From a virus (Duplodnaviria; Heunggongvirae; Uroviricota; Caudoviricetes), in IMG/VR virus record IMGVR_UViG_2718218399_000002: a DNA stretch of 39,647 bases. The stretch is one strand, 5' to 3'. Shown piece by piece: positions 12,001 through 15,000 of the stretch. Position numbers: made by a program. Position 1 is the first letter of the stretch; each line of letters opens with the position of its first letter.

Positions 12001-15000
12001 ACCTGCGCTGTTTACAGCCATGCTGACACAGTTTCGTGCTGACCTCTCCGTGTTTAACGCGCAGTGCCATGGTGGCAGCGCTGCAGATGTGCCGTGGATT
12101 TGTGGTGACACGACGTATTACTGGAAAAATACATACGCTACCCAGTACGACACCGTGTACGGCGGGTATAAAAACAGGGAGAGTGAGGGCGTTTATTTTG
12201 TGCCCTTCATGACAGACGGTAACGGCGTCAATACCGCCACTAACGCGCCGGCAGAAGATCCGGATATTCCGGCATCAGGATATTACGGTGCGGCATCGAG
12301 AACGAATGGAAACCAGGTATCATCAAACCGCCCGACACATTTCAGTTCATGGGCGCGCAGGAGCATTATTCCGGATCGTCTGGCAACCGCTATTCTGAAC
12401 GCAGCCGGGCGCACCTCAGCCTTCATCAGTGGTAAGGCACCGGAAATCAAACCCTCGCCCGGCGGCAACACGCCATCGGGTCCGTCTGCAGATACGTCCG
12501 TTCGCACAATCTCCCTGCTGCCGGCAGCCGGAGAGGCTGCTGCGCAGGGCTGGAGCATTAAGGATGGCGGAATTCAGTTGTCAGATGGTGTATTTAAGAT
12601 CACCAGGCAGAGCAATAAAACCTGGTCCCTGACGCATCCGGTGGATGACGCAATTACCCTGCTGACACAGGGCGGCAGACTGACCTGTAAGTTCCGCCTG
12701 TCAGGCGCACTGACCAACAATCAGTTCGGGCTGGGGATTTATCTGTATACGGATGCTCCCGTTCCTGATGGTGTGGCGATGACGGGTACCGGTAATCCGT
12801 TCCTGATGTCGTACTTCACTCAGACCACTGACGGCAGGGTGAATCTGATGCATCACAGGAAAGCCGGAAACACGAAGCTGGGGGAGTTCGGCGATTACGG
12901 TAACGACTGGCAGACGCTGGAGCTGGTGTTCACCGCCGGCAGTGCCATGGTTACTCCGAAACTGAATGGAGTGGCTGGCCCGGCATTCCAGGTTATAAAA
13001 GACAGTCTGACACTGGGACTGAATGCGCTGACGCTGACGGATGTTACAAAAAATGCAGCGTATGGCGTTGAGATAGAAAGTCTGATGCTGGAGATAAATG
13101 CACCGGCAGCATAATAAAAAAACAGCCAGTACTGACTTTCGTCGGAGAAGTACTGAACCGCCCCGGGTTTCCTGGAGAGTGTTTTATCTGTGAACTCAGG
13201 CTGCCAGATCATCGTTTCCGATGGAAGCATAATAAGCTTTTTCTGCTTCTGCCGGAGGAGTATGGCCCAGCCTTCCCAGCAATCGTCGATTGTTATACCA
13301 GTCCACCCACGTTAGTGTGGCCAGTTCCACTTCTGCACGGTTTTTCCAGCTCTTACGGTGTATTACCTCCGCTTTGTAAAGACCATTGATGCTCTCAGCC
13401 ATCGCGTTGTCATACGAGTCGCCTGTACTCCCTGTTGATGCCAGTAATCCGGCTTCTTTTAGTCGCTCCGTATAGGCCAGTGACACATACTGAGAGCCTT
13501 TATCGCTGTGATGGATGGTGCCAGACGGACGACGGGCCCACAACGCCTGCTCCAGCGCATCCAGCACGAATGTCGTTTCCATAGACGATGAGACCCGCCA
13601 CCCCACGATGTATCCGGCAAACACATCAATGATAAACGCCACATAGACGAAGCCCTGCCATGTGCTGACGTAAGTAAAATCAGCCACCCACAGCTGGTCA
13701 GGTCGTTCTGCCACGAACTGACGGTTTACGCGGTCGCCTGCGGCAACGGCTTTCCGGCTGATGGTCGTACGGACCTTTTTACCCCGGAGAACACCGGCAA
13801 GTCCCATAACCGCCATGAGACGTGCCACTGTACATCTGGCCACCCTGATTCCTTCCCGTAACAACTGACGCCAGACTTTACGCACACCGTACACCTGATG
13901 ATTTTCATCGTATACGCGCTGTATCTCTCTCTTCAGCCAGTCGTCGTGCTGCGCACGGGCACTGCGTTTATCCGGATGATGTCGCTGTTGCTGACAATGG
14001 TAATACGTTGACGGGGCAATATGCAGTTCGCTGCATACCGGTCCGACCCCGTACTGCTCACGCAGCTTATCCAGCAGTGGCATCATTTTTTCCAGAGGCG
14101 GTCGAACTCCGCCTTCGCAAAATAAGCGGAAGCCTGGCGAAGGATATCGTTACTGCGGCGCAGTTCACGATTTTCACGTTCCAGCTCTTTCAGACGCTGA
14201 CGTTCAGCGCTGGTGAGCCCACCATCACCGCCCCCGGTATCCCGCTCATGCTGGCGAACCCAGACACGCAGAGTCTCCGGCGTACAGCCAATCTTTGGGG
14301 CAATGGAACAAATTGCCGCCCACTGTGAGTCATATTCATCCTGACTTTCCAGAACCATACGAATCGCCCGCTGACGGACTTCGGGGGAAAAACGAGTATT
14401 TTTAGTCATCCTGTTTACCTCTTTCTCAGGGAGTTTAGTCTCCAGGATTTCCGGGGCGGTTCATACTGGCTAAGAAGGATAGTTGGGTTTCACATGATAC
14501 TTATATCTGGCAGTACATTTTCTGACAGACAGTGATGGGTGTTGTCAAGATATTGTGTCATTTATAACCTGAATCAGGGGGGGGAGCCGGAATGTTATCT
14601 GGCATTTTTAGCAGAGCCTGAATGCCATAATCACGGCTCCCGGCGTTGGCCGTCAGTGGGCGACACTGGCGGCTTTTTGTTTTCCTTTACTTTCATTTTC
14701 TGTCGGCGGTGACGGAGACATACATCAGATGGAAAAAATCACAACAGGTGTGTCATACACCACGTCAGCGGTGGGGACGGGATACTGGTTACTGCAGCTG
14801 CTGGACAAAGTCTCTCCGTCCCAGTGGGTGGCAATCGGTGTGCTGGGGAGTCTGCTGTTTGGCCTGCTGACGTATCTGACTAACCTGTATTTCAAAATCA
14901 GAGAGGACCGTCGTAAGGCGGCGCGGGGGGAGTAAAGCGATGAAGAAAAAATACGAACTGGGTGTTAAAGGGATAAATAATTACCCGGATAAGATTACTG

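Follow-up and report, generated by a model that had tools for sequence, protein, structure and literature searches.

Members of the IS3 family of insertion sequences (ISs) are about 1.2-1.5 kb long, and those that move by copy-out-paste-in, such as IS911, IS3 and IS2, combine two open reading frames (ORFs) linked by a -1 frameshift with a DD(35)E catalytic triad, TG...CA ends and a 3-bp target duplication. The same features are found in the IS629 element located at positions 13154-14463 of a 39,647-nucleotide stretch of caudoviricete DNA (IMG/VR record IMGVR_UViG_2718218399_000002; hereafter the window), which is the subject of this report. What sets it apart from these relatives is a frameshift stimulator of the ALIL pseudoknot type; the mechanism proposed for it below draws on family knowledge.

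IS629 is reported to duplicate 3-4 bp of its target (PMC3271280). IS1203, the form found in enterohaemorrhagic Escherichia coli (EHEC), is an isoform of IS629 and belongs to sub-type I, the sub-types being about 4-5% divergent (Rump et al. 2011, PMC3271280). The closest described insertion is IS.15, reported by the same authors in prophage Sp14 with flanks TTAGCCAGTA and GTACTTCTCC (Rump et al. 2011, PMC3271280). All four reference genomes have it, as do all O157:H7 strains of the A6 clonal complex when examined by polymerase chain reaction (PCR), whereas in A4 and A5 strains the Sp14 site is present but empty (PMC3271280). A second copy suited to comparison is that of Sp5 (VT2-Sakai, AP000422), which is likewise oriented against the late operon and separates the lysis genes from the stx/nanS-p region. 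The Sp5 copy differs in that it lies inside the 3' part of a nanS-p homologue (933W L0105-like), about 1 kb upstream of S, and breaks that gene. It is also strain-variable, whereas IS.15 in Sp14 is fixed.

The insertion is IS.15 of prophage Sp14

The element in the window is almost certainly IS.15 itself, an ancestral IS629 insertion that arose in a single event and became fixed in the lineage of the typical O157:H7 clone. It is the same element as in Sakai Sp14, at the same nucleotide, in the same orientation and with the same TAC/GTA duplication. The window junctions, ggagaagtac/TGAACC and GGTTCA/tactggctaa, are the reverse complement of the published IS.15 flanks. The element and its target duplication are placed as follows.

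13154..14463, minus strand: IS629 (IS1203 isoform), 1310 bp, corresponding to ECs_2744/ECs_2745 in Sakai Sp14; one copy within the window
13151..13153, unstranded: left copy of the TAC target-site duplication; a single TAC stands in the empty sites (493/89, PV15-279 and others)
14464..14466, unstranded: right copy of the TAC target-site duplication

The occupied locus, taken as 2116 bp, is 100% identical in Sakai, where it is annotated within Sp14, and in EDL933, EC4115, TW14359, Xuzhou21, 86-24 and others. The window and Sakai thus have no difference at this locus; away from it, single bases are missing from homopolymers of the window, and its right end is of the Sp4 type, as in 86-24. The evidence has two limits: some of the 314 complete genomes that cover at least 80% of the 2116-bp query may hold the IS and one flank only (81% of the query), and the element was named by comparison with the annotated VT2-Sakai copy and a plasmid copy from Shigella sonnei, in place of the type sequence X51586. 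A stricter 200-bp query across the right junction retrieves at least 290 complete genomes. As the same junctions recur in these 290-314 genomes and in all A6 strains, the insertion dates to the ancestor of typical O157:H7 and is not specific to one strain.

The earlier note on this DNA had proposed that joining the flanks across the TAC repeats restores a continuous intergenic sequence, and had named an empty site in related prophages as the test of its interpretation. Our query for that site consisted of 403 bp from the left flank and 400 bp from the right, linked by one TAC (803 bp). It is uninterrupted at 100% identity in 8 complete genomes (PV15-279, ECP19-198, 493/89, F3113, F6294, F8492, one O157:H16 and one O2:H16 strain) and at 99% or more in 51 records, with 99.8-99.9% in LSU61, O103:H2 and others. 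In O157:H- strain 493/89, the empty site was read directly as ...ggagaagtactggctaag... Its host prophage has the gene order of Sp14 (cI/cro, O/P, Q, three tRNAs, terB-like, nanS-p, S, R, Rz, pchC-like, terminase), and the empty site of PV15-279 likewise lies in a prophage with the Sp14 gene order. The proposal of a simple insertion thus passed its own test, with synteny in both strains, one TAC in the empty sites and no interrupted gene.

The exact empty site came solely from E. coli genomes and was not found in the phage collection, where Stx1 phages and phage 434 matched the query in two pieces (about 96%) and phage 2B8 in one piece (93.5%). That collection is also without any record of an IS at this site, the best match being the IS with one flank elsewhere (VT2-Sakai, 69% coverage); Sp14 is not deposited as a phage.

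One standard IS3-type insertion, with duplication of the 3-bp TAC target, almost certainly occurred in the A6 ancestor after its split from sorbitol-fermenting O157:H- and some early O157:H7 lineages. The copy has been inherited vertically since then. Its arrival split a small minus-strand terminator-like hairpin and broke no gene.

The insertion had been called probably recent in the earlier note, and it does look young: its direct repeats match perfectly, the IS has suffered no damage and does not differ from other copies, and activity of IS629 in A6 strains is on record (PMC3271280). However, a recent, strain-specific event stemming from ongoing IS629 activity in the isolate is exceedingly improbable. 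The 290-314 complete genomes with identical junctions include all well-known O157:H7 reference strains, all A6 strains are PCR-positive (PMC3271280), the empty sites sit in prophage copies with ancestral-type alleles, and independent insertions at the identical nucleotide and in the identical orientation are implausible. 'Recent' therefore describes no more than the undecayed state of the IS and its duplication, the insertion being clone-ancestral. As for an assembly artefact, in which a multicopy repeat would have been misplaced, the many homopolymer errors in the window and the presence of about 20 IS629 copies per O157:H7 genome (PMC3271280) might bring it to mind, but its chances are practically nil: hundreds of independent finished genomes have exactly these two junctions and this target duplication, and PCR has confirmed the site. 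We rejected it on the match of the junctions. There is an outside chance that the empty sites of the few O157:H7 genomes are secondary, resulting from precise excision of IS629 promoted by IEE, an activity reported in EHEC (PMC9943667). PV15-279 could be such a case, with many IS629 copies (at least 40 places) and a capsid deletion in common with Sakai. Nevertheless, the two empty-site prophages compared, 493/89 and PV15-279, differ from the window by 10 substitutions that they have in common and that lie to either side of the site, which points to an earlier-diverging form of the prophage in PV15-279 and favours ancestral absence over later excision. Furthermore, 493/89 and LSU61 belong to groups that are without IS629 at the known sites or ancestral (Rump et al., PMC3271280). 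The ancestral-type alleles that PV15-279 has in common with 493/89 thus speak against precise excision as the source of its empty site, and we retain a single ancestral insertion absent from the earlier branches.

Anatomy and naming of the element

The internal features of the element, all on the minus strand, are the following.

14439..14463, minus strand: left inverted repeat (IRL), upstream of orfA, TGAACCGCCCCGGAAATCCTGGAGA; AP000422 annotates a 25-bp IRL
13154..13178, minus strand: right inverted repeat (IRR)
14409..14083, minus strand: orfA, 108 amino acids, helix-turn-helix, PF01527 HTH_Tnp_1; open
14086..13196, minus strand: orfB, 296 amino acids, PF13276 (HTH_21) and PF00665 rve; open, in the -1 frame relative to orfA
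14012..14128, minus strand: -1 frameshift cassette, ALIL pseudoknot RF01497 (Rfam 121.5 bits, gathering score 50, E=1.3e-32, full-length 1-117/117)

The terminal inverted repeats are 25 nt long and imperfect, 22 of the 25 positions (88%) being complementary (TGAACC...GGTTCA, with ends 5'-TG...CA-3'), and their length agrees with the annotated 25-bp repeats of IS629 in AP000422. The 1310-bp extent with matched imperfect ends, as first described, is also that of the Sakai RefSeq annotation (NC_002695), where a repeat_region 'IS1203 Family: IS3' has the same boundaries and encloses an 'IS629 transposase OrfB'.

The two ORFs overlap by ATGA. OrfA is identical to that of the Sp5 IS629, and the catalytic triad of OrfB consists of D136, D195 and E231, with 35 residues between the second D and E, and K at E+7. 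An A6 slippery run (TGG AAA AAA TGA; T6 at 14086-14091 on the plus strand) lies at the overlap, inside the ALIL cassette, and a conceptual OrfAB fusion matches the IS3 family transposase model NF033516 over its whole length (1-369/369, 366 bits, cutoff 160). All sequence parts for IS3-type transposition are present, and from these intact parts we infer competence for transposition and frameshifting. By analogy with the family, -1 ribosomal frameshifting at the A6 run, assisted by the ALIL pseudoknot, would yield the OrfAB transposase, and DDE catalysis would then generate a circular copy-out intermediate, followed by paste-in.

The unbroken transposase frames had been considered notable given the homopolymer problems elsewhere in the window. 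Both frames are indeed open, but the window has 12 one-base deletions in 27.5 kb, from which 0.57 would be expected in 1310 bp, with a probability of none of 0.56. Their integrity is thus unremarkable.

Alignment with the annotated IS629 of VT2-Sakai (AP000422 mobile_element, 1310 bp) gives 1309/1310 identities (99.9%), no indels and one difference, located in the IRR. The S. sonnei IS629, represented by a plasmid copy and not by the type sequence, is also 1310 bp long with the same ORF layout; 1259/1310 positions are identical (96.1%), with 51 substitutions, several of which change OrfA and OrfB amino acids, and no indels, and the termini are the same except for 1 nt in the IRL. The ends thus coincide with those of both references, and the original interpretation survived that comparison. 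The element is 100% identical over its full length to many chromosomal and plasmid copies labelled 'IS3-like element IS1203 family transposase' by RefSeq/PGAP; relative to IS1203/IS1203v, the difference is one of naming. A copy covering at least 80% of the element is present in 3042 of 5426 complete E. coli genomes. By the ISfinder convention, isoforms have at least 95% nucleotide identity. Length, inverted repeats, two ORFs, frameshift signal, DD(35)E triad, 3-bp duplication and an identity of at least 95% all agree with the IS3 family and with IS629. Judged by its sequence, the element is a complete, ordinary IS629, for which 'IS629, IS1203 isoform' is a more exact name than the initial 'IS629-like', and nothing was found that contradicts this identification.

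Insertion site and target hairpin

The IS entered the spacer between an esterase gene and the holin gene, 39 bp past the nanS-p-type stop codon and 265 bp ahead of the holin ATG. The transposase genes point against the phage late operon, and no gene is interrupted. The surroundings are as follows.

11267..13114, plus strand: nanS-p-type SASA/DUF1737/DUF6645 esterase, upstream neighbour, untouched by the IS
14729..14935, plus strand: class II holin S, downstream neighbour, identical to Sakai ECs_2743
13124..13153, minus strand: left remnant of the target hairpin, which in the empty site reads AGCCAGTAC-N17-GTACTGGCT, terminator-like, then U7; the rest of the arm is at 14467-14471

That both neighbours were left intact holds as far as the IS is concerned, since it breaks neither gene and the holin is identical to its Sakai counterpart. 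It does not hold entirely for nanS-p, which has three unrelated one-base deletions in G runs (11763, 11819 and 11867) relative to Sakai ECs_2746. As these add up to 3 nt, the ORF stays open (615 amino acids versus 616), but residues 167-200 are garbled until the reading frame recovers, which leaves an incomplete match to the SASA domain. The three deletions are most likely sequencing or assembly errors. In the spacer between the IS and the holin gene, a G8 homopolymer is found at 14576-14583.

The IS entered within an arm of the hairpin (GTAC/TGGCT). The strong hairpin of the empty site, located just past the nanS-p stop codon, has a folding energy of -18.7 kcal/mol (z = -5.1) on the minus strand, where U7 comes after it; the annotation of phage 434 places a minus-strand terminator at the corresponding position. 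A consensus promoter scan and Rfam revealed no minus-strand gene, promoter or known small RNA that it could serve. In E-value mode, Rfam returned ALIL alone for the occupied locus. The sole match of the empty locus, a sub-threshold one to a Bacillus small RNA family (28.5 bits versus a gathering score of 50, E=0.05), was treated as chance arising from the hairpin and U-run. As IS629 was found to have no target specificity (Rump et al. 2011, PMC3271280), the choice of this hairpin as a target is regarded as incidental.

Consequences for late transcription and transposase supply

The earlier note had suggested that the IS may alter late transcription into the lysis genes. In lambdoid phages, late transcription is Q-antiterminated, and the effect of the IS on lysis-gene expression is therefore most likely small. 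A strong plus-strand terminator-like hairpin, with 11 pairs followed by TTTTGTTTT, is located at 14648-14674, inside the late operon and 55 bp upstream of the holin ATG. A consensus scan of both strands of the region revealed no outward or hybrid promoters directed toward S and no minus-strand promoter in the spacer.

One might imagine that 1.3 kb of antisense DNA, together with convergent transcription of the transposase genes, lowers or delays expression of the lysis genes and thereby helps to domesticate Sp14. The late transcription unit does contain the IS, which stands 265 bp ahead of S and has become fixed in the lineage, and Sp14 is not packaged in Sakai (PMC2669165). Nevertheless, such a role is quite unlikely, given that Q-antiterminated transcription must already pass the hairpin at 14648-14674 before S, and that the same scan revealed no promoter-like site in the region on either strand. 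A copy of this IS that differs by 1 nt also stands upstream of S in Sp5, oriented alike, and a derivative of Sp5 nonetheless remains able to transfer. Similarly, the stx2::IS629 prophage of FRIK1275 still produces downstream late transcripts and forms plaques (PMC7430833). Asadulghani et al. assign the defects of Sp14 to head, tail and excision functions, its lysis functions being conserved (PMC2669165), and a 2.5-kb deletion running from capsid to tail genes already leaves the prophage defective. It is also tempting to ask whether the IS629 expansion in O157:H7 started from IS.15 as its chromosomal founder or 'master', with transposase expression raised to an unusually high level by read-in transcription. 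Of the two sites reported to be universal among A6 strains, IS.15 is the chromosomal one and the second is on pO157 (PMC3271280), and its allele at IS.15 is identical to IS629 copies at many other loci. If this were true, splitting of the hairpin would let any minus-strand transcript that arises in the S-proximal spacer and formerly ended there continue into orfA/orfB in sense orientation; we consider the idea decidedly improbable. A small effect of the IS on lysis-gene expression remains our preferred view.

The host prophage

Sp14 is a lambdoid prophage carrying tccP/espJ and located next to serU; the serU attachment end is outside the window. From position 1 to about 27000, the window corresponds to Sakai Sp14 with zero substitutions and 12 one-base deletions in short homopolymer runs. 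Besides the three in nanS-p, nine such deletions are found at 19053, 19516, 20859, 21203, 22155, 23271, 26174, 26256 and 27390, in the terminase-to-tail region. Every one shortens its run, in most cases a G run, and would put the affected gene out of frame.

From about 27400 to 39647, the window departs from Sakai Sp14 and is 99.7% identical to the Sakai Sp4 end with tccP2. Positions 26000-39647 are 100% identical to strains 86-24 and ATCC 43888, the Sakai counterpart being the Sp4 end that carries tccP2. The prophage is thus an Sp14/Sp4 chimera of an 86-24-like O157:H7 strain. A chromosomal inversion between Sp4 and Sp14 has been published (PMC5931665), and the Sp4-type right end is consistent with it. 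In that part of the window, a 141-bp tandem repeat (37997-38889, 6.3 copies, 98% matches) may be the repeat region of tccP2, which is annotated in the best-matching genomes.

Relative to the prophage of 493/89 (locus L005, 24625-27127), the window has a 2.5-kb deletion at about 24665-24674, common to Sakai and PV15-279. Lost with it are the C-terminal portion of the major capsid gene, gpFI, the genes for head-tail joining, U and the beginning of the major tail gene, and the prophage is defective as a result. As Sakai and PV15-279, the latter with an empty site, both have this deletion, it must be older than the IS insertion. The PV15-279 prophage (NZ_AP018488.1 2677113-2705915, locus L006) is a case of its own: the genome has IS629 in at least 40 places, yet its Sp14 is without IS.15. 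With 493/89-like alleles flanking the site and the capsid deletion, it represents an intermediate that orders the events, deletion first and IS second.

Upstream of nanS-p, three tRNA genes with anticodons CAT, TCG (Arg) and TCT (Arg) are found at 9938-10187, between Q and the terB-like gene, the CAT tRNA being annotated as ileZ in Sakai. This placement of a tRNA trio is the usual arrangement in Stx-type lambdoid prophages.

Significance

New biology would follow from this insertion only if an effect on late transcription or on transposase supply were real; otherwise its value is one of bookkeeping. The insertion was already published as IS.15 and serves as a phylogenetic marker, with all A6 strains occupied and A4 and A5 strains empty. 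In the present case, its presence supports the assignment of the window to Sp14 of an 86-24-like O157:H7 strain, and it is of practical use in IS629-based strain typing. More generally, IS629 copies are substrates for recombination and inversion in O157:H7 genomes.

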